Assembly (NCBI GenBank): GCA_034440455.1
Contig: JAWXCB010000008.1
Location: 66,442-130,441 of the forward strand
Length of the DNA: 64,000 nucleotides
From: Chitinophagales bacterium
Lineage (GTDB): Bacteria; Bacteroidota; Bacteroidia; Chitinophagales; CAIOSU01
Direction: 5' to 3'
The notes below the pieces were generated by a model that made no database searches, was not told the origin of the DNA, and saw nothing but the letters and a program-made list of their open reading frames with translations. Made by a program: the position numbers and the translations under genes. This document shows positions 2,903-56,133 of the stretch, piece after piece. The first letter of the stretch is position 1. Each line of letters begins with the position of its first letter.

Positions 2903-3086
2903 AGGATGCACAGGTGAATTGAGGAAAGGATTTGGCGCGTATTTACTGTGTTTCTTTAGTGCTTTTACTGGTAGCATACTTTGTAGTAGAGTAGTGAATA
3001 TCTACAATAGTGCTTGTAAATACGTTAGTCAATATGCTCCTAAAAATTTATGTCCGTTGAAATGAACGCATAAGGGATAAATGAAG

Positions 3087-3150
3087 TTTTTAAAAGAAGG
3101 GATTAGAAGCACAACTGTTCGTTTACCTATCAAAACCCTTCTTTTAAAAA
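3087..3150. repeat. perfect 15-bp inverted repeat (TTTTTAAAAGAAGGG / CCCTTCTTTTAAAAA) with a 34-nt spacer
   Basis: Arms at 3087-3101 and 3136-3150, read directly from the sequence. It lies in the 600-bp non-coding gap left of the R-M islet. Confidence 0.7.
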
Positions 3151-11092: not shown

Positions 11093-11153
11093 ATTTTCCA
11101 TATCCAAATGGCAAATAACAAAACTCAAAAAGCCAGCATTCCGCTTGTTGTTT

Positions 11154-11181
11154 GTGATTTGAAATTTGAGAATTGAGAATT
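11154..11181 (+). repeat. degenerate heptamer micro-array (GTGATTT GAAATTT GAGAATT GAGAATT)
   Basis: Four consecutive 7-nt units read directly, 32 nt upstream of the GTG start at 11213. Confidence 0.6.
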
Positions 11182-11212
11182 TTGATATTGGTTATTTAAA
11201 CAACTTCAGTTC

Positions 11213-14492: not shown

Positions 14493-17171
14493 ATGAAAAA
14501 TACATTTAACCCGGTTTTTGTTTTCGCACTCGCAGGATTGCTTTTCTTTGCGAAAAATATTGCCGCCCAGACTGAAACCATTCCTGCCGGCTCATTCATC
14601 GTTGACATGGGCGTGGTTCCGCAAACCATTGGCAACGGATTGAAGCCTTATGGTTTGGTTTATTCTTTAATCGAGAACTATAATGTTCCCGTTAGATGGG
14701 CGATTAATCCCAACAAAAATTTTGGCGGAGTTGATTTCAGTTACAACGGTTATGATTTCAGGGGCGGTCCGTTTATTATCACAACTCCTTCCCGCACGGC
14801 AGTGGTAAACAGCGAAATAGCAGCATGGCAGGCACAAGGTGTGGCGGGCATCACAACTACAGCGGATCTCACAGTCCCCATTTACCGGACGCTCACAGAA
14901 TTTACAAATGTCGTGATTGACCAGCAGAATGAGGCGCTGGTGATTCCTTATTACAACAATGCCGGAATATCAAGTTCCTCCTACCGTATTGGCTCGCCTG
15001 CCGATTTGAATTATTGCGATGACATGTACGCCATGCCTCATGCCGACCCTGAATGGACAACGCACCAAAACTTGCTGTACTTCAACACCAATCTCAACGG
15101 ATTCATCTGGGCAGGTTGCCATGCAGTGAGCATGTTGGAAGCATTGATAAATCCTGCCGATTCATCGCAACGGACAAATTTTCTCACGCAAAGCGGTATG
15201 CAATGCTGGAAAATAAATAGCTGCGAACCACCTATCACCGAGTTTCATGCGCAACAGCCAACCTTGCCGTATCTCTATGATTCTTCAACAGGAGGCTTGC
15301 CCGTGATGCAATTTATGGAAGATATGACTCCCTCCACTGAAAATGGCTCCGAGCCATGGTATATTCCATTAAACACAGGCACATGGAATCCGGGAGCAAT
15401 CCGTTGCGTCAAAACTTCTGATGGAGCATCTCCCCGTGAGGGCGTGAAACTCGTGTATGGACGCGGCTTTGATAATCCGTCAAACGGAATGGTGATGTAT
15501 GAAGGCGGACACACAGGGCACAACAACGGCAGCATTCAATCGCAGGTAGCTTTTCAAAGAGCTTATTTCAACTTCGTGCTGATGGCGGGACTTGAACGGC
15601 ATATTGACACTGTGACTGCGGACTTCAGCTATAGCATTATCTGGACAAACAACTGCGATTCGTTCATGGTGCAATTCGTGAACAACTCAACAGGGGATGC
15701 CGATTACTATTGGGATTTTGGTGATGGCGCTACTTCAACGGATTCTGCGGTGACGCATCTTTTTATCGGAAACGATTCTGTGGAAGTGATGCTCGCTACA
15801 GTGACAACGAGTTGGTGCGGATTAAGCGATACCACCTATCAGCCTATCCATTTTAACCCGGTGCTTGACACGCTCGATTTTGATTTTATTTTTTCAGAAA
15901 GCCTCGCTGCGGATTGCGATTCACTGCTGGCGCAATTCAACACTTCAATAAGCGGCAATGCAACTGCGTCTTGGGATTTTGGAAACGGAATGACTGCGAC
16001 CGGCACTTCCGTTTCCTTTGCTTATACGGACACGGGCATTTACAATGTGACGCTCACTGTTACGCCTGCATCACCCTGCACTATTGGGCGCAGCATTTCA
16101 AGGCAGGTTACTTTTAGTCCGACACGCTATGCTACCATCGCTGACTTTACGCACAATGTGATTTATTCTAATACTTGCGATACGTTTGTAGTCAAGTTCA
16201 ACAATCTCAGTTCTGGCGGCACTTCTTACCTCTGGGATTTTGGCAACGGAAGCGCGTCAGCAAATTTTGAAGAAACAATCACGTACGCAGCCGGAAATTA
16301 CAACGTGTCTTTACAAGTGAATGACAGCCATCAATGCTCAACGAATGACACCGCCTTCCTGTCCCTTGTCTTCACTTCGACCATTGTGAATCCACTTGCC
16401 GATTTCACTTACGATGTTGCTACGAATTGCGATGTATCAGAAGTGAATTTTTCCAATCGCAGTTCGGGCACGAGTAATTTCATCTGGCGGCTGAATAACA
16501 ATGTCAGCAGCAGTTTGCTTTCGCCTGATGGTCCTTTGCAATATTATCAATCGGATACAATCAATGTTGAACTCTCTACAGCGGGAACAAACAATTGCTA
16601 TTCGAATGATACCATTTCAAAAACTATCTTCATTCCTGCACCATATGGCTATCCGGTAGCTGATTTTAATTTTATGCCTGTGAATCCTGAAGTGGATGAG
16701 GTGATACAGTTTACCAATTTATCGCAACGCGCTGACCTTTCTTTATATCAGTGGAATTTTGGCGATGGAAGTACTACAGCCGAAATCAATCCGCAACATG
16801 CTTACACGCAAAAGGGTGTGTATGACATCTGTCTCTCTGCTGACAACGGTTATAACTGTCCGTCTATTGCCTGCAAGGATATTCCAGTGATTTATACCGA
16901 AGTAGTTGAACTGCCCACAGCATTCACTCCCAATGGCGATAATCACAACGATATTTTCATCGTCCGCGGAAAAGACATCGAAAGAATTGATTTAAAAATT
17001 TTTAACCGATGGGGCGAGTTGGTGTTTCAAAGTAAAGACCTTACTGTAGGCTGGGATGGCACCTTCAAAGAAGATCCGCAGGAAATGGAAGTATATGATT
17101 GGCTGCTGAATGCAACACTGAAATCAGGCGCAGGAATTTTTAAGAAAGGAAATGTGACGTTACTGAGATAA
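14493..17171 (+). CDS. large secreted multi-PKD-domain protein with a T9SS type-B sorting domain (paralog of 11213-14368)
   Basis: 892 aa with a signal peptide, an unassigned N-terminal domain of about 370 aa, PKD repeats, and a CTD nearly identical to the upstream paralog. Confidence 0.85.
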   Translation: MKNTFNPVFVFALAGLLFFAKNIAAQTETIPAGSFIVDMGVVPQTIGNGLKPYGLVYSLIENYNVPVRWAINPNKNFGGVDFSYNGYDFRGGPFIITTPSRTAVVNSEIAAWQAQGVAGITTTADLTVPIYRTLTEFTNVVIDQQNEALVIPYYNNAGISSSSYRIGSPADLNYCDDMYAMPHADPEWTTHQNLLYFNTNLNGFIWAGCHAVSMLEALINPADSSQRTNFLTQSGMQCWKINSCEPPITEFHAQQPTLPYLYDSSTGGLPVMQFMEDMTPSTENGSEPWYIPLNTGTWNPGAIRCVKTSDGASPREGVKLVYGRGFDNPSNGMVMYEGGHTGHNNGSIQSQVAFQRAYFNFVLMAGLERHIDTVTADFSYSIIWTNNCDSFMVQFVNNSTGDADYYWDFGDGATSTDSAVTHLFIGNDSVEVMLATVTTSWCGLSDTTYQPIHFNPVLDTLDFDFIFSESLAADCDSLLAQFNTSISGNATASWDFGNGMTATGTSVSFAYTDTGIYNVTLTVTPASPCTIGRSISRQVTFSPTRYATIADFTHNVIYSNTCDTFVVKFNNLSSGGTSYLWDFGNGSASANFEETITYAAGNYNVSLQVNDSHQCSTNDTAFLSLVFTSTIVNPLADFTYDVATNCDVSEVNFSNRSSGTSNFIWRLNNNVSSSLLSPDGPLQYYQSDTINVELSTAGTNNCYSNDTISKTIFIPAPYGYPVADFNFMPVNPEVDEVIQFTNLSQRADLSLYQWNFGDGSTTAEINPQHAYTQKGVYDICLSADNGYNCPSIACKDIPVIYTEVVELPTAFTPNGDNHNDIFIVRGKDIERIDLKIFNRWGELVFQSKDLTVGWDGTFKEDPQEMEVYDWLLNATLKSGAGIFKKGNVTLLR

Positions 17172-17212
17172 TTACGAATTAGGAATTAGGAATGACGAAT
17201 TACGAATTGCAT
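17171..17212 (+). repeat. heptamer micro-array (ATTACGA ATTAGGA ATTAGGA ATGACGA ATTACGA ATTGCAT)
   Basis: Six consecutive 7-nt units. The annotated ATG of the PorP/SprF gene (17192) is part of unit 4. Confidence 0.75.
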
Positions 17213-18292
17213 AAAAAAAATAGCTGTCGTCAATCAAAAGGCAGCGGTAACTCAGTATCGAATTACCGAATCATCAAATTATCAAATTTGCTTGCCATTC
17301 TATTGTTGACTGTCGTCTGTCGTCTGATGACTTCCGCCCAAGACATTCACTTCTCTCAGTTCTATGCTTCTCCTCTAACGCTAAATCCTTCGCTTACCGG
17401 CAGCTTTGATGGACTGATGCGTTTCGGGGGAAATTACCGTACGCAGTGGGGCAGTGTGAGTGTGCCTTTTCAAACAGTTTCTGTTTTCACCGACCTGAAT
17501 ATCATGCGCAGTAAAATGGATGGCAACTGGTTGAGCGCGGGACTGCACGCGGTGAATGACCGTGCGGGTGACGGAAAACTGATGGCGAACAAAGCATCAC
17601 TTTCACTTGCGTATCATATCAAGCTTACGAAGTGGCGAAATTTTTATCTGAGCCTTGGCGCAGCGGGATTGTTTGTTCACAAGAAAATTGATTTCTCAAA
17701 ATTGCTGTTTGATTCGCAATGGAATGATGTGGGGTTTGATAGCCAGATCGACCCCGGAGAAAATTACGCAAGTGATGCCGTTCAGTATTTCGACTTTCAT
17801 GCAGGCGCTTCCATGTCATACTCTGTTCCGAAAAAATTCAGCATTGAAGGTGGCGTTTCTGTGATTCATATTTTCGCTCCGTATGAATCATATTTCAATG
17901 AGGACAACCAAGTGCACCGCAGACCTGTTGCGCATGTATATTCCGATATTCGTGTGCATAAAGACTGGGGCTTGCAGCCAGGCGCCTCGTATATGTATCA
18001 GCGGGGAGCACAAGAAATTGTTGTCGGAACAAACGTAACGCTTGATAAGAAACTGACTTACTCGCGCAAGCTTGTCATCTTCTTCGGCTTGTGGATGCGC
18101 AACCGTGATGCATTGTATCCTTTGGTTGGCGCGCAGTTGCAACGCACTCGCATGTTATTCAACTATGACTTGAACCTTTCAAAGCTCATTCCCGGCAGCT
18201 ACTCGGTAGGTGCGTTTGAAATCTCCATCGTGCATGTGATTGACAAGGATAGACCGGTGAATAATGTACGCATGTGTCCGAGGCTGTTTTAA
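17192..18292 (+). CDS. PorP/SprF-family type IX secretion system membrane protein
   Basis: 366-aa ORF. QDIHFSQFYASPLTLNPSLTG after the signal sequence is the family signature, and the gene sits directly downstream of type-B CTD cargo genes. The start is uncertain because the first 32 codons are encoded by tandem 7- and 8-nt repeats. Confidence 0.8.
   Translation: MTNYELHKKNSCRQSKGSGNSVSNYRIIKLSNLLAILLLTVVCRLMTSAQDIHFSQFYASPLTLNPSLTGSFDGLMRFGGNYRTQWGSVSVPFQTVSVFTDLNIMRSKMDGNWLSAGLHAVNDRAGDGKLMANKASLSLAYHIKLTKWRNFYLSLGAAGLFVHKKIDFSKLLFDSQWNDVGFDSQIDPGENYASDAVQYFDFHAGASMSYSVPKKFSIEGGVSVIHIFAPYESYFNEDNQVHRRPVAHVYSDIRVHKDWGLQPGASYMYQRGAQEIVVGTNVTLDKKLTYSRKLVIFFGLWMRNRDALYPLVGAQLQRTRMLFNYDLNLSKLIPGSYSVGAFEISIVHVIDKDRPVNNVRMCPRLF
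17256..17287 (+). repeat. octamer micro-array (TATCGAAT TACCGAAT CATCAAAT TATCAAAT)
   Basis: Four 8-nt units inside the annotated 5' end of the PorP/SprF ORF. Same word family as 47845-47876. Confidence 0.65.
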
Positions 18293-26305: not shown

Positions 26306-26336
26306 GCTTGTAGCTCGTAGCTTGAGGCTTGCAGCT
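26306..26336 (+). repeat. heptamer micro-array (GCTTGTA GCTCGTA GCTTGAG GCTTGCA GCT)
   Basis: 4.4 consecutive 7-nt units ending 14 nt before the paaA ATG. Confidence 0.7.
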
Positions 26337-27346: not shown

Positions 27347-27420
27347 GTTTAGTTGTCTGTTTTCAGTCTTCAGTTGTTGAGTGCTGAACAGTAAACCGTA
27401 AATAGCAAAACAGTAAACCG
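27347..27420 (+). repeat. degenerate 7-nt periodic tract plus the 10-nt direct repeat CAGTAAACCG
   Basis: Units GTTTAGT TGTCTGT TTTCAGT CTTCAGT, then CAGTAAA CCGTAAA TAGCAAA. CAGTAAACCG occurs at 27389-27398 and 27411-27420. The tract fills the paaA-paaB gap. Confidence 0.5.
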
Positions 27421-35898: not shown

Positions 35899-35922
35899 AC
35901 AATTTCATCATGTAGAATAACC

Positions 35923-35964
35923 AAAAATCAAATTTCAAATAGCAAATAGCAAATAGCAAATAGA
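35923..35964. repeat. heptamer micro-array (AAAAATC AAATTTC AAATAGC AAATAGC AAATAGC AAATAGA)
   Basis: Six consecutive 7-nt units, three of them identical. On the sense strand of the downstream gene (start 35898) it reads CTATTTG x4. Confidence 0.8.
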
Positions 35965-36001
35965 AATTCGATTTTAGATTTGTTATTTGAAAATTTGCAA
36001 T

Positions 36002-39039: not shown

Positions 39040-39067
39040 TTGATTATTGAAATTTGAAAATTGGTAA
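39040..39067 (+). repeat. heptamer micro-array (TTGATTA TTGAAAT TTGAAAA TTGGTAA)
   Basis: Four consecutive 7-nt units ending 15 nt before the ATG at 39082. Confidence 0.6.
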
Positions 39068-39081
39068 TTTCAGGAAGGCAG

Positions 39082-40410
39082 ATGTTTGCAATCATTGACA
39101 CAGAAACGACAGGCGGCAATCCGGTGAAAGACCGCATCATGGAGATTGCCGTTATCCTGCATGATGGCGAGCGCGTGGTGGAAGAATTTGCAACGCTGCT
39201 CAATCCGGGCACTCCCATCGCCCCGTTTATTATTTCGCTTACAGGCATCACAAATGAAATGGTGCAGGATGCGCCAACCTTCGACCAGATTGCGGAAACG
39301 GTGGAGCGGCTCACCGGGAAAAGCATTTTTGTAGCGCATAATGCGCGCTTTGATTATTCGGTGGTGCGCAGGGAGTTCAAGCGCATGGGCGTTCGCTTTC
39401 AGCGGAAGCAACTCTGCACTGTGCATCTCAGCCAGAAATTATTACCCGGAAAACAATCGTACAGTCTCGGTAAACTTTGCCGCGAAATCGGGATACAAGT
39501 TGAAAAACGTCACCGCGCTTTGGGTGATGCGCGGGCAACGGTTTTGTTATTTGAAAAACTGCTAGGAGGCGACAAGGAGCATATCATCAACAGCGTGTTC
39601 ACCGATGAGTTGGAAGGCGCTGATATTCCGCCCAATCTTTCATCCGAAACCGTTGATGATTTGCCGGAGGAAACAGGCGTTTATTATTTCTTAGATGATA
39701 AAATGAAAATCCTGTTTGTGGGCAAAAGCAGGAACATCCGCAAGCGCGTGATTGATCATATCCTGAAAGAGGCAAACGAGCCTTATTTCGCCCGCATGAA
39801 AAACCGGATTTATGATGTGCAGTATGAAATCACCGGCAGCGAGTTAATCGCGCAGTTGTTTGAGTTTGATGAAATAGAGAAACACGCCCCGCCTTTCAAT
39901 TTCACAAGAAGAAAAAAACAATACAACTACGGCATTTACTCTTTCACCGATGCGGATGGTTTGTTGAATCTCGGTATTGATAAATTGAATCGCGATGAAC
40001 CTCCGCTTCTGGAAACGATTTCTTACAACACGGCTTTAAAAATCCTGAAAAAGCTCGTTCCTAAATATGAATTAGACCCGCGCCTGTGCGGATTGGGTAA
40101 TGGCGATGAAACGCCTGCTATCAGTCCGTTGCTGTACAATTCAAAAGTGCAGCGGCTGCTTCAGAGATACCAGCATGAGCATCCCAATTTTTTCATTATT
40201 GGCGAAGGCAGAGCGCATCACGAGCAATCCGTGGTGTGGGTGGAAAGAAACTGCTACAAAGGCTTTGGCTATTTCGAGCCGGAACACATCGAAAACGACA
40301 TCCAATCGCTGATGGATGCAGTGAAGCCTTCAATAAACAATGCGGACGCAAGCCGCCTGATTAAAAACTGGATGAAGAAGAAGATGAAGGATGAGGTGAT
40401 TAAGTATTAA
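39082..40410 (+). CDS. DnaQ-like 3'-5' exonuclease fused to a GIY-YIG (UvrC/Cho-like) domain
   Basis: The N-terminus FAIIDTETTG ... AHNARFDY ... HRALGDA gives the Exo I-III motifs. This is followed by GVYYFLDDKMKILFVGKSRNIRKRVIDH (GIY-YIG). Confidence 0.8.
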   Translation: MFAIIDTETTGGNPVKDRIMEIAVILHDGERVVEEFATLLNPGTPIAPFIISLTGITNEMVQDAPTFDQIAETVERLTGKSIFVAHNARFDYSVVRREFKRMGVRFQRKQLCTVHLSQKLLPGKQSYSLGKLCREIGIQVEKRHRALGDARATVLLFEKLLGGDKEHIINSVFTDELEGADIPPNLSSETVDDLPEETGVYYFLDDKMKILFVGKSRNIRKRVIDHILKEANEPYFARMKNRIYDVQYEITGSELIAQLFEFDEIEKHAPPFNFTRRKKQYNYGIYSFTDADGLLNLGIDKLNRDEPPLLETISYNTALKILKKLVPKYELDPRLCGLGNGDETPAISPLLYNSKVQRLLQRYQHEHPNFFIIGEGRAHHEQSVVWVERNCYKGFGYFEPEHIENDIQSLMDAVKPSINNADASRLIKNWMKKKMKDEVIKY

Positions 40411-44627: not shown

Positions 44628-44675
44628 TTTGTAGTTCGTGTTTTGTTGTTTGTAGTTACAACAATGCAACACGAA
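44628..44675. repeat. heptamer tract (TTTGTAG TTCGTGT TTTGTTG TTTGTAG) that folds into an imperfect hairpin
   Basis: Outer stem TTCGTGTT (44635-44642) / AACACGAA (44668-44675) and inner stem TTGTTG / CAACAA, between the receptor gene and the downstream lipoprotein gene. Confidence 0.6.
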
Positions 44676-46871: not shown

Positions 46872-47735
46872 TTATTTCTTTTCGTAATCATAAAACCCCT
46901 TTCCCGTTTTTCTTCCCAATTGCCCCGCTTCAACTTTTTGCTGCTGAATTCTGCTCGGACGAAATTTTGAATCATGGTGAAACGATTCAAACAGCGAGGA
47001 AGTAACAGAGAAGTTAATATCGTTCCCCACGAAATCCATCAGCCGGAACGGACCCATTTTAAAACCGGATGCTTCCATCAGCGCATCAATATCTTCATAA
47101 GATGCGACTCCTTCTTCGAGCGCTTTCAGTGACTCCACATAGTAATGCCGCGCAACGCGGTTCACAATAAAACCCGGTGAATCTTTCGCCAGCACGGGCG
47201 ATTTGCCCATTTTTTCAGCAAGCGCAGAAATTGTTTTTGCAACGGAATCATGCGTAACCGCGCCTGAAATCACTTCCACCAACTTCATGATATGCGCAGG
47301 CATGAAAAAGTGCATACCGACAACTCTTTCGGGGTTTGGAATGGAAGCGGCAATTCTTGTAATCGGAATTGAAGAAGTGTTTGTTGCAAGAATACAATCC
47401 GCAGCGTTGTTTGCAGCGAGTCGTTTGAATAAATCTTGTTTCACTTCCAATTTTTCAACGACCGCTTCAATGATGACATCTGCTTTTACCTCATTGAAGT
47501 TGTTCGTGAATTTCAATCGTTTCAGAATTACCTCTTTTTGTTCTGTACTCAGTTTTTTCTTTTCAATTGCAGCATCCATGTTTTTTAGGATACTGTTCTT
47601 TGATTTTTCTAATTGCGGTTCGCTGATATCATAGAGCATTGTAGCATAGCCAGTTTGCGCTGCAACCTGCGCAATGCCCGAACCCATAGAGCCGGAGCCA
47701 ATGATGGCAATGGTTTTTATGTCGCTGAGAGTCAA
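46872..47735 (-). CDS. 3-hydroxyacyl-CoA / 3-hydroxybutyryl-CoA dehydrogenase
   Basis: 287 aa with Rossmann motif IAIIGSGSMGSGIA and the C-terminal HCDH domain (GFIVNR). TTG start, since an in-frame TAG lies 27 nt upstream. Confidence 0.85.
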   Translation of the reverse strand: MTLSDIKTIAIIGSGSMGSGIAQVAAQTGYATMLYDISEPQLEKSKNSILKNMDAAIEKKKLSTEQKEVILKRLKFTNNFNEVKADVIIEAVVEKLEVKQDLFKRLAANNAADCILATNTSSIPITRIAASIPNPERVVGMHFFMPAHIMKLVEVISGAVTHDSVAKTISALAEKMGKSPVLAKDSPGFIVNRVARHYYVESLKALEEGVASYEDIDALMEASGFKMGPFRLMDFVGNDINFSVTSSLFESFHHDSKFRPSRIQQQKVEAGQLGRKTGKGFYDYEKK

Positions 47736-47758
47736 GTTGTAAGTTTTAAGCTGTAAGT
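47731..47758 (-). repeat. heptamer micro-array (sense strand: ACTTACA GCTTAAA ACTTACA ACTTGAC)
   Basis: Four 7-nt units abutting and including the TTG start of the dehydrogenase gene. Shares the word ACTTACA with 56068-56116. Confidence 0.6.
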
Positions 47759-47844
47759 TCTATGAATCATCCCCCTGAAATCGCTTCAATTCTGTTATGC
47801 CCTTCGCACTCACACAATCCCTCGATCATGAGAGACTTTTCATC

Positions 47845-47876
47845 ATCGAATCATCGAATCACCGAATTATCGAATC
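47845..47876. repeat. octamer micro-array (ATCGAATC ATCGAATC ACCGAATT ATCGAATC)
   Basis: Four consecutive 8-nt units immediately 3' of the pheS stop codon. Same word family as 17256-17287. Confidence 0.75.
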
Positions 47877-47879
47877 AAA

Positions 47880-48923
47880 TTACCACCCGCTTTCAAATTG
47901 CTGCAAAAACCGCACATCATTTTCTGACAGCAGCCGAATATCTTTGATTTGATATTTCAGCATGGCGATGCGTTCGATTCCCATACCGAAAGCAAAACCC
48001 GTATAGACGCTGCTGTCAATCTTACAATTCTCCAACACTTGCGGGTCAACCATGCCGCAGCCGAGAATCTCAACCCAGCCGCTTCCTTTACACACGGGAC
48101 AACCCGTTCCACTACAAATGAAACAGGTAACATCAAGTTCAGCAGATGGCTCCGTGAATGGAAAGTAAGATGGACGCAGTCTGATTTTTGTTTCTTTCCC
48201 AAAAAATTCCTGTGCGAAATAGAGCAATGTTTGCTTCAAGTCCGCAAAGGAAACATTCTTGTCAACGTACAATCCTTCAACTTGATGAAAGAAACAATGA
48301 GAGCGGGCAGAGATAGTTTCGTTGCGATACACGCGCCCGGGACAAATCACGCGGATAGGCGGCTTTTGATTTTCCATCACGCGCACCTGCACGTTGGAAG
48401 TATGTGTGCGCAGCAGCCACTGCTGGTCTTCAGTGACAAAATAAGTATCCTGCATATCACGCGCGGGATGGTCGGGCGGAAAATTCAATGCGGTGAAGTT
48501 GTACCAGTCCTTTTCAATTTCAGGACCTTCGGCAATCGTGTAGCCGATGCTGCTGAAAATATCAATGATTTTTTTGCGCACAATGGTAACAGGATGACGC
48601 GAGCCTAATTCAACCGGCTCGCCCGGCATCGTGAGATCAATATTCGTAGTTGTTTTTGAAGATGCAGATTCAAACTGTTCCTTCAGCGATTCGTATTTTG
48701 ATTCAGCTTCCTGCTTGAGCGTATTTAAGGTTTGTCCGAAATTTTTCTTTTCCTCAGCGGGCACTTCTTTCATCAGAGCGAAAACATCTTTCAACTTTCC
48801 TTTGCTGCCGAGGTAGGTTATCCTGAATTGTTCGAGTTCCTGCACATTTTTTATTTCCGAAGATTTGATTTCATCAAGCAGTTTTTGCGTTTCCGCGTAA
48901 TACTGCTGCACTCCTGTTTCCAT
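47880..48923 (-). CDS. pheS: phenylalanine--tRNA ligase alpha subunit
   Basis: 347 aa with class II aaRS motifs (HPARDMQDTYF, FRNE-like VYRNETISARSH, GFAFGMGIERIAML). Confidence 0.95.
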   Translation of the reverse strand: METGVQQYYAETQKLLDEIKSSEIKNVQELEQFRITYLGSKGKLKDVFALMKEVPAEEKKNFGQTLNTLKQEAESKYESLKEQFESASSKTTTNIDLTMPGEPVELGSRHPVTIVRKKIIDIFSSIGYTIAEGPEIEKDWYNFTALNFPPDHPARDMQDTYFVTEDQQWLLRTHTSNVQVRVMENQKPPIRVICPGRVYRNETISARSHCFFHQVEGLYVDKNVSFADLKQTLLYFAQEFFGKETKIRLRPSYFPFTEPSAELDVTCFICSGTGCPVCKGSGWVEILGCGMVDPQVLENCKIDSSVYTGFAFGMGIERIAMLKYQIKDIRLLSENDVRFLQQFESGW

Positions 48924-55211: not shown

Positions 55212-55283
55212 TTTGACATACAAATGACCTTTTTGTTTTCATTCCACATCCTTTTCTGTCTAAATTGTTCCCACTATTGATTT

Positions 55284-55958
55284 ATGTCTGCCACCTCAGT
55301 AAAGCGAATTCGTTATTCTCCAAGATTTCTGCTGGGACTATTTTTTATTGGATTTGTTTTTGCCTGCGAAAAAACTCTTGAAGAAAACCCGCATCAAAAA
55401 GAAAAATTTCAAATGAAAGCGGGTGCAGTTGACTCTGCGGAATATTATTTTCAGCCCGATTATACTTTTCAGAAGATAATTGATACCTGTTTTGGTTATC
55501 GGGATTCACTATTAATAGATTTAAACAGGGATAGCATTCATGATTTGGCAGTTATATGGACTAAAGCTGTTCTTTCCCTACAGATTAGTTGCTGTCCACA
55601 AGATTCAGGCTGGGAGTGTTTTCCAACTTTGATGGACTACAAATGGATTAATCTTCTAAATCCTGATTTGCAAATCGCATCCAACAGAATAGACTTTAGC
55701 GGACTTTCAGAGAATTTTATTCAACCATTAAATTCCAATGATACTATTAATGATAATCTAAATTGGAGTTCATTTCGGGCTCAATATATCTTCCGAGGTT
55801 CAAACTATTATATAGAACCAACAGGATATTGGGGGAATCAAACCCATTTTGCAGGAGTAAGACTTTTGGAGCCAAATGATACCTTATACGGTTGGATAAG
55901 AATTAATCCGGATTCAACTCTCAGAGTCATTGATTTTGCTTTTGAAGGAGGTAGATAA
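55284..55958 (+). CDS. hypothetical lipoprotein
   Basis: 224-aa ORF with a signal/lipobox-like FVFAC. No family recognised. Confidence 0.4.
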   Translation: MSATSVKRIRYSPRFLLGLFFIGFVFACEKTLEENPHQKEKFQMKAGAVDSAEYYFQPDYTFQKIIDTCFGYRDSLLIDLNRDSIHDLAVIWTKAVLSLQISCCPQDSGWECFPTLMDYKWINLLNPDLQIASNRIDFSGLSENFIQPLNSNDTINDNLNWSSFRAQYIFRGSNYYIEPTGYWGNQTHFAGVRLLEPNDTLYGWIRINPDSTLRVIDFAFEGGR

Positions 55959-56030
55959 TCACCACCCCACCTAAGTCATACGCTACGAAAGATGCCGTTA
56001 TGTAAAGGAAATCAGTACGCGCCAAATAAC

Positions 56031-56116
56031 AGTAATAAGTTGTAAGTGAATAGCTGATTTATCTTCAACAACTTATTACTTACAACTTATTACTTACAAC
56101 TTACGACTTACAACTT
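56031..56116. repeat. 17-bp perfect hairpin plus a seven-unit heptamer array (ACAACTT ATTACTT ACAACTT ATTACTT ACAACTT ACGACTT ACAACTT)
   Basis: AGTAATAAGTTGTAAGT (56031-56047) is the exact reverse complement of 56078-56094. The array spans 56068-56116 and runs into the -7 box. Confidence 0.85.
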
Positions 56117-56123
56117 AACTTTG
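56116..56123 (+). promoter_or_regulatory. Bacteroidota-type -7 promoter box TAACTTTG
   Basis: Matches TAnnTTTG, 10 nt upstream of the ABC ATPase ATG. Confidence 0.4.
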
Positions 56124-56133
56124 CCTCCCCCTT

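Follow-up and report, generated by a model that had tools for sequence, protein, structure and literature searches.

Short tandem arrays of degenerate 7-nt units occupy intergenic spacers throughout a 64,000-nt stretch of a Chitinophagales genome (hereafter the window; positions 66,442–130,441 of contig JAWXCB010000008.1, i.e., C8:66442-130441 of the 4.53-Mb, 137-contig, 44% G+C Bacteroidota assembly GCA_034440455.1, labelled G000). They are exemplified by the focal array (ACAACTT ATTACTT)x3.6 at 56068..56117 (+ strand), i.e., seven alternating heptamers ahead of an ABC-transporter ATPase gene. The arrays belong to the long-unit simple sequence repeat or STRR-like class, which has undergone amplification in some scattered lineages of bacteria. 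Replication slippage, in steps of 7 or 14 nt, generates them and alters their length, and they act as fillers of spacers adjoining both kinds of gene end. Their orientation relative to the adjacent gene is probably owed to a filter imposed by translation, with the hairpins between facing arrays possibly arising as a by-product.

Arrays in the window were called with Tandem Repeats Finder (TRF) at a score of at least 30, which recovered eight of the eleven loci listed by a first-pass annotation (11151-11182, 17170-17208, 17256-17288 with period 8, 27387-27418, 35922-35967, 47734-47759, 47842-47877 with period 8, and 56068-56117). The remaining three (26306-26336, 39040-39067 and 44628-44662) gave no call at this score, their periodicity being weak and their units too degenerate. 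In the whole genome (TRF score of at least 40), arrays of period 7, 14 and 21 amount to 148, 139 and 72, respectively, compared to 0, 15 and 0 after 100-bp block shuffling, i.e., far more than by chance. The excess is confined to one spacing: the count of 4-mers recurring three times in succession is 925 at spacing 7, but 101 at spacing 5 and 84 at spacing 10. Merging yielded 370 arrays with a median length of 32 nt, about 250 of them (258) non-coding, and the supposed genome-wide nature of the feature is thus confirmed.

The arrays fall into a few unit families, in agreement with the earlier remark that words recur at unlinked loci. Read on the C-rich strand, the in-phase core of the 258 non-coding arrays is AACT in 99, AATT in 43, CAAC in 16 and ACTT in 10 cases. 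A second family of 8-nt period (TGATTCGG/TAATTCGA, i.e., TRATTYGR) occupies some 50 loci, including those at 17256 and 47842 in the window. Units are AT-rich, and runs of G are confined to the minor GTGTTGAGGGTGG family.

Relative to the 3375 genes predicted by a codon-usage-based open reading frame (ORF) caller (87% coding), the arrays show no preference for starts. The first-pass annotation had placed them almost always 10-35 nt before a start codon and had proposed a promoter or leader feature. Among arrays in co-directional spacers, however, 85 are closer to the start and 76 closer to the stop, both sets piling up 0-10 nt from the gene end, and start-proximal ones typically end 3-11 nt before the ATG. 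Convergent spacers, which contain no start codon, are as densely populated as divergent ones (33 vs 34 per 100 kb), compared to 44-59 in co-directional spacers and 2.9 in coding DNA. Arrays often take up most of a short spacer. Even three of the loci originally cited (17170, 44628 and 47842) turned out to be after-stop arrays. Abutting stops as often as starts and also filling convergent spacers, the arrays are neither promoter- nor start-specific.

What distinguishes the two gene ends is polarity. In gene orientation, arrays ahead of starts read (NNAAACT)n, (CCTAATT)n or (CAACTAA)n, whereas those past stops read as the complements (AGTTTNN)n or (AATTAGG)n, often beginning inside the stop codon. 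Among arrays no more than 8 nt from a start, the sense strand is C-rich in 50 and G-rich in 8 (p 2e-8); among those equally close to a stop, it is G-rich in 53 and C-rich in 10 (p 3e-8). Runs of AACT end 3-11 nt before an ATG in 28 of 41 cases and never start within 20 nt after a stop, while AGTT runs behave in the opposite manner. The TTG or TTTG noted earlier at every 7 nt of the sense strand is accordingly the after-stop orientation; ahead of starts, the sense strand is G-poor. The rule is repeated in another genus of the family (G004), with ratios of 9:0 at starts and 10:3 at stops. A cause in the replication strand was rejected, because the two ends of one and the same gene carry opposite orientations.

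Slippage is shown by natural variation. Thirty-four metagenome contigs were found by exact identity of window proteins; apart from one ENA and one NCBI assembly, their source is a single metagenome series (JGI Ga0163144-55, Logan SRR6448205-19). They are 99.2-100% identical to window positions 9388-58533 (409 kb aligned). All multi-base indels in these 409 kb fall into heptamer arrays at three of the listed loci and are multiples of 7, i.e., steps of 7, 14 or 21 nt, as expected from the slippage-proneness proposed before. The focal array is shortened by 14 nt (at 56072) to five units in L023-L026, compared to seven in L022 as well as the window, and its flanks do not differ across 177 alignment columns. 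At 35.9 kb (35940-35978, -14/+7), three alleles exist in which both arms vary (CAAATAG x4, x3 or x2; ATTTGTT x1 or x3), and two contigs (L046, L049) lack 7 nt at 11170. The eight other listed arrays, which are the more degenerate ones, were covered and constant in length. Beyond these, the contigs contain just one +1/-1 pair, spaced by 6 nt, within pheS (48336-48342) of the single contig L038, representing either a compensated frameshift or an assembly error. Unit composition also points to slippage: in AAACT arrays, adjacent units are identical no more often than by chance (13 of 78), while units two apart are identical in 12 of 27 cases (44%; chance 13%, 3.6 expected), an a-b-a-b pattern fitting a 14-nt slippage step. 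Practically, the arrays are readily usable as strain markers of the variable-number tandem-repeat type, and natural length alleles with identical flanks are available.

The polarity becomes readable when translation is considered. Bacteroidetes ribosomes ignore Shine-Dalgarno sequences; what tunes their initiation is a low degree of secondary structure, adenines upstream of the start and a scarcity of additional AUGs (PMC6847099, PMC7797042). In line with this, array-free leaders of the source genome contain 13% G at positions -15 to -6 and show no Shine-Dalgarno signal. Before-start arrays carry 0.07 ATG/GTG/TTG per 7 nt in their actual orientation, compared to 0.48 when flipped. Stop codons in all three frames occur in 87% of after-stop octamer arrays as they stand, compared to 7% when flipped; for after-stop heptamer arrays, the corresponding values are 48% and 25%. 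As sole cause of the after-stop orientation, stop-codon content was rejected, being convincing for octamers but only modest for heptamers. The mean unpaired probability of leaders (-40 to -1) is 0.615 with lone arrays, 0.495 in controls and 0.386 with paired arrays (p 4e-7 for lone, 1e-5 for paired). The polarity therefore probably reflects selection by translation among the two possible orientations of arrays born by slippage: a phylum not using Shine-Dalgarno sequences would need open leaders poor in G and free of AUG, GUG and UUG ahead of starts, the counterpart past stops being stop codons in three frames. Lone arrays would then open the leader and paired ones close it, and gain or loss of units may modulate how strongly the adjacent gene is expressed.

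Several observations weigh against this interpretation. About 15% of gene-end arrays break the polarity rule, among them those at 35.9 kb, 11.15 kb and 26.3 kb of the window. Gene starts and stops were taken from our own ORF calls, with which the JGI calls on the population contigs agree for the window genes compared by hand. The filter is weaker at the after-stop end, because array-free 3' flanks display no G/T-rich bias (G 19-20%, C 19-22%); there, stop-codon content is the sole carrier of the filter and has a modest effect for heptamers. Finally, a core of 4-5 nt (AAACT) is conserved across about 100 loci beside free positions, which is unlike the outcome of neutral slippage and drift and hints at a binding factor or a common origin.

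Inverted pairing is a second conspicuous property. The perfect 17-nt inverted copy reported upstream of the focal array is real (56031-47 vs 56078-94): the G/T-rich partner (AGTAATAAGTTGTAAGT...) at 56031..56056 (+ strand) pairs with 56069-56094 in a predicted 19-bp stem with a minimum free energy of -23.1 kcal/mol (z -5.8 against shuffles). Genome-wide, 82 of the 258 non-coding arrays have an inverted partner within 120 nt, compared to 3 in a mirror control. In all 14 AGTT/AACT pairs, the G/T arm lies 5' and the A/C arm 3' (14:0), equally on both strands and as the polarity rule predicts for co-directional, convergent and divergent spacers. In many co-directional spacers, the whole sequence accordingly runs as stop / (AGTTTNN)n / loop / (NNAAACT)n / 3-10 nt / ATG. 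Since unit families are common to both gene ends, spacers with both arrays would automatically hold an inverted repeat, predicted to fold into a 15-35-bp hairpin reaching from the stop codon to the next start.

The hairpins may be a by-product of the polarity rule, because true partners exceed arm pairs combined across loci in complementarity by just a narrow margin (0.545 vs 0.473, p 0.04) and because the sense RNA is not favoured over the antisense RNA. The latter comparison, aimed at selection on the RNA level, found the sense strand more stable in 15 of 33 hairpin spacers and no signal from G-U pairs. Even as by-products, the hairpins would still form in RNA and reduce leader accessibility according to the folding predictions. 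Paired arrays are plausible substrates of RNase III, as known from 23S rRNA intervening sequences.

Other origins of the hairpins were considered and rejected. Exact inverted duplication is at odds with the marginal complementarity of partners, intrinsic terminators with the AT-rich stems and a 3' arm running into the start codon, and REP/BIME or MITE-type elements with loops unrelated between loci and arms that share just a 4-5-nt core and belong to different families.

Across relatives, amplification of heptamers is sporadic and lineage-specific. The pattern (AAACTNN)x2AAACT has 78 matches in the source genome, the highest number among about 340 Bacteroidota genomes sampled; any match occurs in 58 of 301 Bacteroidota genomes, with a few unrelated ones reaching 36-49, and other genomes are rich in the reversed control pattern, i.e., in other 7-nt units. 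Turnover is also seen between genera: of the G004 gene ends with an array, 8 of 41 are also array-bearing in G000, compared to 9 of 112 ends without one, and most orthologous G004 spacers differ from G000 in array presence. The nuoA-nuoB spacer holds the same family in both genera with differing unit number, and some orthologous spacers hold different unit families in the same orientation. More often, the G000 spacer is short and plain, e.g., 6 nt vs an 83-nt hairpin in G004. In the nearest relative found, the Chitinophagaceae metagenome-assembled genome L001 (DnaJ 74% identical), the ABC gene follows 36 nt past dnaJ (3064-3099), both the focal array and a 224-aa ORF being absent, while a -7-like box (TAACTTGT) is kept at the place equivalent to TAACTTTG of the window. 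The whole 0.9 kb (55212-56133) thus looks, from this sequence comparison, like an insertion relative to L001.

Genes behind start-proximal arrays are ordinary ones, including those for DHFR, BCCP, NuoB, L17, LpxD, GalE and 3-hydroxybutyryl-CoA dehydrogenase, as well as proteins which, from our own reading of the sequences, we take to be GyrA, SdhA and GlpK.

Alternatively, the arrays could be cis-acting expression elements, i.e., docking sites in the mRNA leader for a single-strand-binding protein (S1, cold-shock or similar) with one unit per 7 nt, slippage serving as a rheostat or phase switch. In favour of this explanation, the AAACT/AAYT core is conserved beside variable flanking positions at about 140 loci, the last unit is tightly placed ahead of the ATG, some orthologous spacers are array-bearing in two genera (at times with different unit families), and unit number is polymorphic in nature. 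An equivalent proposal exists for TAACTGA repeats (PMC4679880) as well as for the TTCAAAA repeats of Nostoc, whose deletion altered reporter output (bioRxiv 10.1101/2022.06.06.494920). We nevertheless regard it as unlikely, since as many arrays lie past stops or in convergent spacers, where no leader exists. Moreover, the downstream genes are of the housekeeping type without a common theme rather than the surface or contingency genes typical of phase variation, a stretch of at least 36 nt adjoining the -7 box and the ATG stays the same despite the 14-nt change in the focal array, and most orthologous spacers of the sister genus are devoid of an array.

Equally doubtful is that the arrays are stems or relics of an insertable element resembling an rRNA intervening sequence (IVS). 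In its full form, the element would enclose, within the loop of a hairpin of heptamer repeats, a gene for a small four-helix-bundle protein of the PF05635 family ('23S rRNA intervening-sequence protein'). RNase III would cut the stem from the transcript, rendering the insert harmless even within operons, and hairpins without a gene as well as lone arrays would represent decayed or non-autonomous copies. A statistical association exists: 7 of the 12 PF05635 (23S_rRNA_IVP) genes in G000 have 7- or 8-nt arrays on both sides and 10 on at least one side, while both-side arrays are found at 41 of 3367 other genes (odds ratio 114, p 6e-11). In each case, the G-rich arm stops 0-4 nt short of the PF05635 ATG and a complementary arm lies past the stop (29-nt match in C129, 25-nt match in C100); these G-rich arms account for a few polarity exceptions (e.g., C5 5615, C66 67110). 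One copy resides between nuoC and nuoD, where the G004 spacer has 64 nt and no such gene, and at another G004 locus (L009) a PF05635 homologue lies between GAGTGTT and ACCCAAC arms. Furthermore, in a set of 41 relatives, genomes with more copies of PF05635 also tend to have more arrays (rho 0.43-0.48, p 0.002-0.005, uncorrected for phylogeny).

The construction parallels the ORF-bearing 23S IVS of Coxiella burnetii and Leptospira (Warrier et al. 2016, PMC4990558), which have a long terminal-inverted-repeat stem, a PF05635/S23p four-helix-bundle gene in the loop and tandem heptamers directly before the ATG with strain-variable unit number; for the Coxiella IVS with its 28-bp stem, excision by RNase III was shown. 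Unlike these, the present cassettes are located between protein-coding genes and most hairpins are gene-less. The parallel makes a role of RNase III in processing the hairpins a reasonable inference. An element origin of the arrays is possible, but just some 10 of about 250 arrays adjoin a PF05635 gene and none does so in the window. The arms also differ wholly between copies (AGTTTGG, GAGACRT, AAGTTGT, AATTAGG, AGCTTGC, GATTCGGT), unlike the ends of transposing elements, and hairpin partners are barely more complementary than arms of different loci. No transposase, target duplication or filled/empty polymorphism was seen, the gene being kept in three of three contigs with identical NuoC, and the polarity rule by itself predicts such bracketing for any gene landing in a spacer. 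One may speculate, with marginally less confidence still, that inverted heptamer arrays are the stems of an 'mRNA intervening sequence', i.e., of a PF05635-bearing cassette between genes (even in the nuo operon) that is trimmed by RNase III, the approximately 50 gene-less hairpins and many lone arrays being its relics. If so, a single family of elements would underlie the excess of heptamer repeats in some bacteria, and RNase III would be expected to process every stop-to-start hairpin, the length of whose stem would be determined by slippage in its arms.

The nuoC-nuoD copy of the PF05635 gene (G000 C1:22596-23064) contains an internal TGA and is bracketed by AGTTTGG and AAACTCA arrays.

Promoter architecture acting on the DNA level (a direct-repeat operator, UP-like elements or a supply of -33 TTTG boxes) is very improbable. 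The focal array does abut a TAnnTTTG box whose position is conserved in L001, this motif is enriched 0-40 nt upstream of ATGs genome-wide (301 vs 56 for the reversed control), and the G/T-rich orientation supplies a TTTG every 7 nt. However, among 102 array-bearing upstream regions, the box lies between array and ATG in 6, upstream of the array in 9 and is missing in 86, corresponding to the background rate. The TTTG-bearing strand is avoided ahead of starts, convergent spacers are equally dense in arrays, and successive units of 7 bp do not stay on the same side of the DNA helix. Periodicity arising by chance in AT-rich spacers, to which one could at best assign the three loci too degenerate for a TRF score of 30 (26306, 39040, 44628), is refuted by the composition-matched shuffles (148 vs 0 arrays at score 40), the specificity for spacing 7 and the whole-unit indels in the population.

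Heptamer repeats are the commonest long-unit microsatellites in bacteria, and the STRR units of heterocystous cyanobacteria comprise CCCCAGT, TTGGTCA and CAACAGT. The slippage-made, translation-filtered arrays favoured here aptly compare with STRR-type heptamers, as had been suggested from the outset. As far as the accounts of STRR and of the heptanucleotide-dominated long simple sequence repeats of Mrazek et al. 2007 given in PMC4679880 and PMC4692102 reach, intergenic 7-nt tandem units, lineage-specific amplification and a proposed origin by polymerase slippage are shared. STRR arrays may reach far greater lengths than the arrays here, which have other units, measure 23-60 nt and leave the assembly unbroken.

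A close match are also the GGGAATC repeats of Xanthomonas campestris and X. axonopodis and the GGGGA(C/T)T repeats of Nostoc PCC 7120 (Rehm et al. 2015, PMC4692102), likewise intergenic tandem heptamers, mostly of about four units. They obey the same polarity, their G-rich strand being coding 0-50 bp past stops (often overlapping the stop) and non-coding 0-50 bp before starts. They also form many convergent (inverted) pairs capable of stem-loops, adjoin genes without common function, and vary in length and sequence among close relatives. In contrast to these repeats, the AT-rich units described here (AAACTNN, AATTASG) are incapable of forming G-quadruplexes, octamers occur beside several unit families, units alternate as a-b-a-b (14-nt superperiod), and the host belongs to the Shine-Dalgarno-less Bacteroidota.

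Similarly, the TAACTGA repeats that MacGregor (2015, PMC4679880) described from marine Beggiatoaceae, some cyanobacteria and five Bacteroidetes are AACT-core heptamers in 'forward' orientation that end a few nt before starts lacking a ribosome-binding site, with a minority toward stops. They precede genes for ribosomal proteins and other housekeeping functions and are sporadic in distribution. In that family, the unit is exact and related heptamers are rarely repeated, whereas the units described here are degenerate at 2-3 positions: the source genome contains no doublet of TAACTGA (0 direct repeats), related units (AAACTTC, AAACTGT, AATTAGG and others) being repeated instead. Moreover, after-stop arrays are here as common as before-start ones, compared to 12 of 170 in the Guaymas 'Maribeggiatoa' (BOGUAY).

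Phase-variable contingency loci, e.g., the heptamer and tetramer tracts of Haemophilus influenzae (PMC12721329, PMC8262952), also possess slippage-prone tandem units of isolate-variable number in the promoter or 5'-untranslated region. Unlike these, the arrays described here are imperfect and short, occur at both gene ends and flank housekeeping genes, an association of the downstream genes with surface, restriction-modification or virulence functions not being apparent; they are not known to have an ON/OFF effect. Thus, the class, its polarity and its inverted pairs have already been published, and new is the AT-rich member from Bacteroidota. With some 250 arrays of two-sided polarity and a statistical tie to the '23S rRNA intervening-sequence protein' family, the source genome represents an unusually clean case.

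The individual loci of the window illustrate the rule as well as its exceptions. The focal spacer spans 55959-56133, and the focal array (TRF period 7 and 14, 7.1 copies), G-poor in sense, ends 16 nt before the ATG (56134). TAACTTTG, a match to the Bacteroidota -7 promoter box TAnnTTTG, is situated between array and ATG at 56116..56123 (+ strand). Among the window hairpins, only that at 56.0 kb is strongly more stable than shuffles, those at 35.9 kb and 44.6 kb being moderately so (z ~-2.6) and that at 27.3 kb not (z -0.8). The focal hairpin contains no terminator-like match and no canonical terminator, and Rfam covariance models applied to the whole window at gathering thresholds gave 0 matches. 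The 224-aa ORF (55284-55958; 181 or 224 aa in the JGI calls) preceding the focal spacer has no Pfam match.

Conforming to the after-stop type, the G/T-rich array (AATTACG/AATTAGG)x5.6 at 17170..17208 (+ strand) has its first bases inside the TAA stop of a PKD/CHU_C gene and is of the same length in ten population contigs. It is followed at 17256..17288 (+ strand) by an octamer array (TATCGAAT/TACCGAAT...) that is C-rich in sense and ends at an in-frame TTG (17288). On the minus strand, a further octamer array (47842..47877; GATTCGAT/AATTCGGT in sense) begins 2 nt past the pheS stop and has a counterpart at the orthologous site in G004. The G-poor heptamers ACTTACA GCTTAAA ACTTACA (47734..47759, minus strand in sense) are located 46 nt upstream of the ATG (47687) of a 3-hydroxyacyl-CoA dehydrogenase gene. 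Between paaA and paaB, a degenerate G/T-rich arm (27347..27385, + strand) begins 8 nt past the paaA stop, and a complementary A/C-rich arm (AACAGTA AACCGTA...; 27387..27418, + strand) ends 5 nt before the paaB ATG; their predicted pairing is weak. The degenerate G/T-rich array at 44628..44662 (+ strand) starts 4 nt past the stop of a TonB-dependent receptor gene and is predicted to fold with the A/C-rich tract next to it.

Exceptions to the polarity rule include the TTTGAGA-type array at 11151..11182 (+ strand), which lies 30 nt 5' of a gene (11213) for a PKD/CHU_C cargo protein of type IX secretion and is G/T-rich ahead of the start codon, with one unit fewer in L046 and L049. CHU_C and PorP/SprF genes of type IX secretion are present in the source assembly. 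Opposite in handedness to the genome rule is also (CAAATAG)x4 (35922..35967), read on the + strand and flanked by two minus-strand genes, with four, three or two units in the population; its opposite arm of the ATTTGTT type (35978..35996, assigned like the former to the minus strand) has one unit in the window and three in L027 and L038. Below the TRF threshold remain the GCTTGTA/GCTCGTA array 5' of paaA (26306..26336, + strand), a member of the AGCT-core family, and a weakly periodic TTGAnnn tract (39040..39067, + strand) 14 nt before the ATG at 39082.

The arrays also affect annotation, causing over-extended N-termini and flagging spacers in which called starts are doubtful. In case of the window's PorP/SprF gene, the annotated ATG (17192) coincides with unit four of the heptamer array, and the octamer array makes up codons 22-32. 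The in-frame TTG at 17288 sits directly before the signal-peptide-like LLAILLLTVVC, and the PorP/SprF Pfam match begins at residue 48. The true start is probably this TTG, about 32 codons downstream of 17192.

The TAnnTTTG motif peaks 10-30 nt upstream of ATGs (301 matches within 50 nt vs 56 for the reversed control), implying very short 5' leaders in the source organism.

One population contig, Ga0163147_10000052 (L037 11412-21156), leaves the window at about 46867, right past a purine-nucleoside-phosphorylase-like gene, and carries Por_Secre_tail, beta-helix and DDE-transposase genes in place of 3HCDH and pheS, constituting a strain-level structural variant.

Contig ends, inspected as possible signs of long or unstable arrays, never coincide with a 7-periodic tract. 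Two of them (C25:1-178 and C112:1-99 of G000) contain a perfect 21-bp tandem repeat (GGTGAGTAGACCTCTACTCAT) with a palindromic core that is not 7-periodic and probably represents one long array breaking the assembly. A separate family of GC-rich REP-like hairpins (GCCGGACTCGTTCCGGCATCCCC ... GGGGATTCCGGCATGAAACCGGAATG) is found in G000 at C63:1995-4547, C25:27.6 kb and C113:13.7 kb, occupying spacers where the sister genus carries heptamer arrays.

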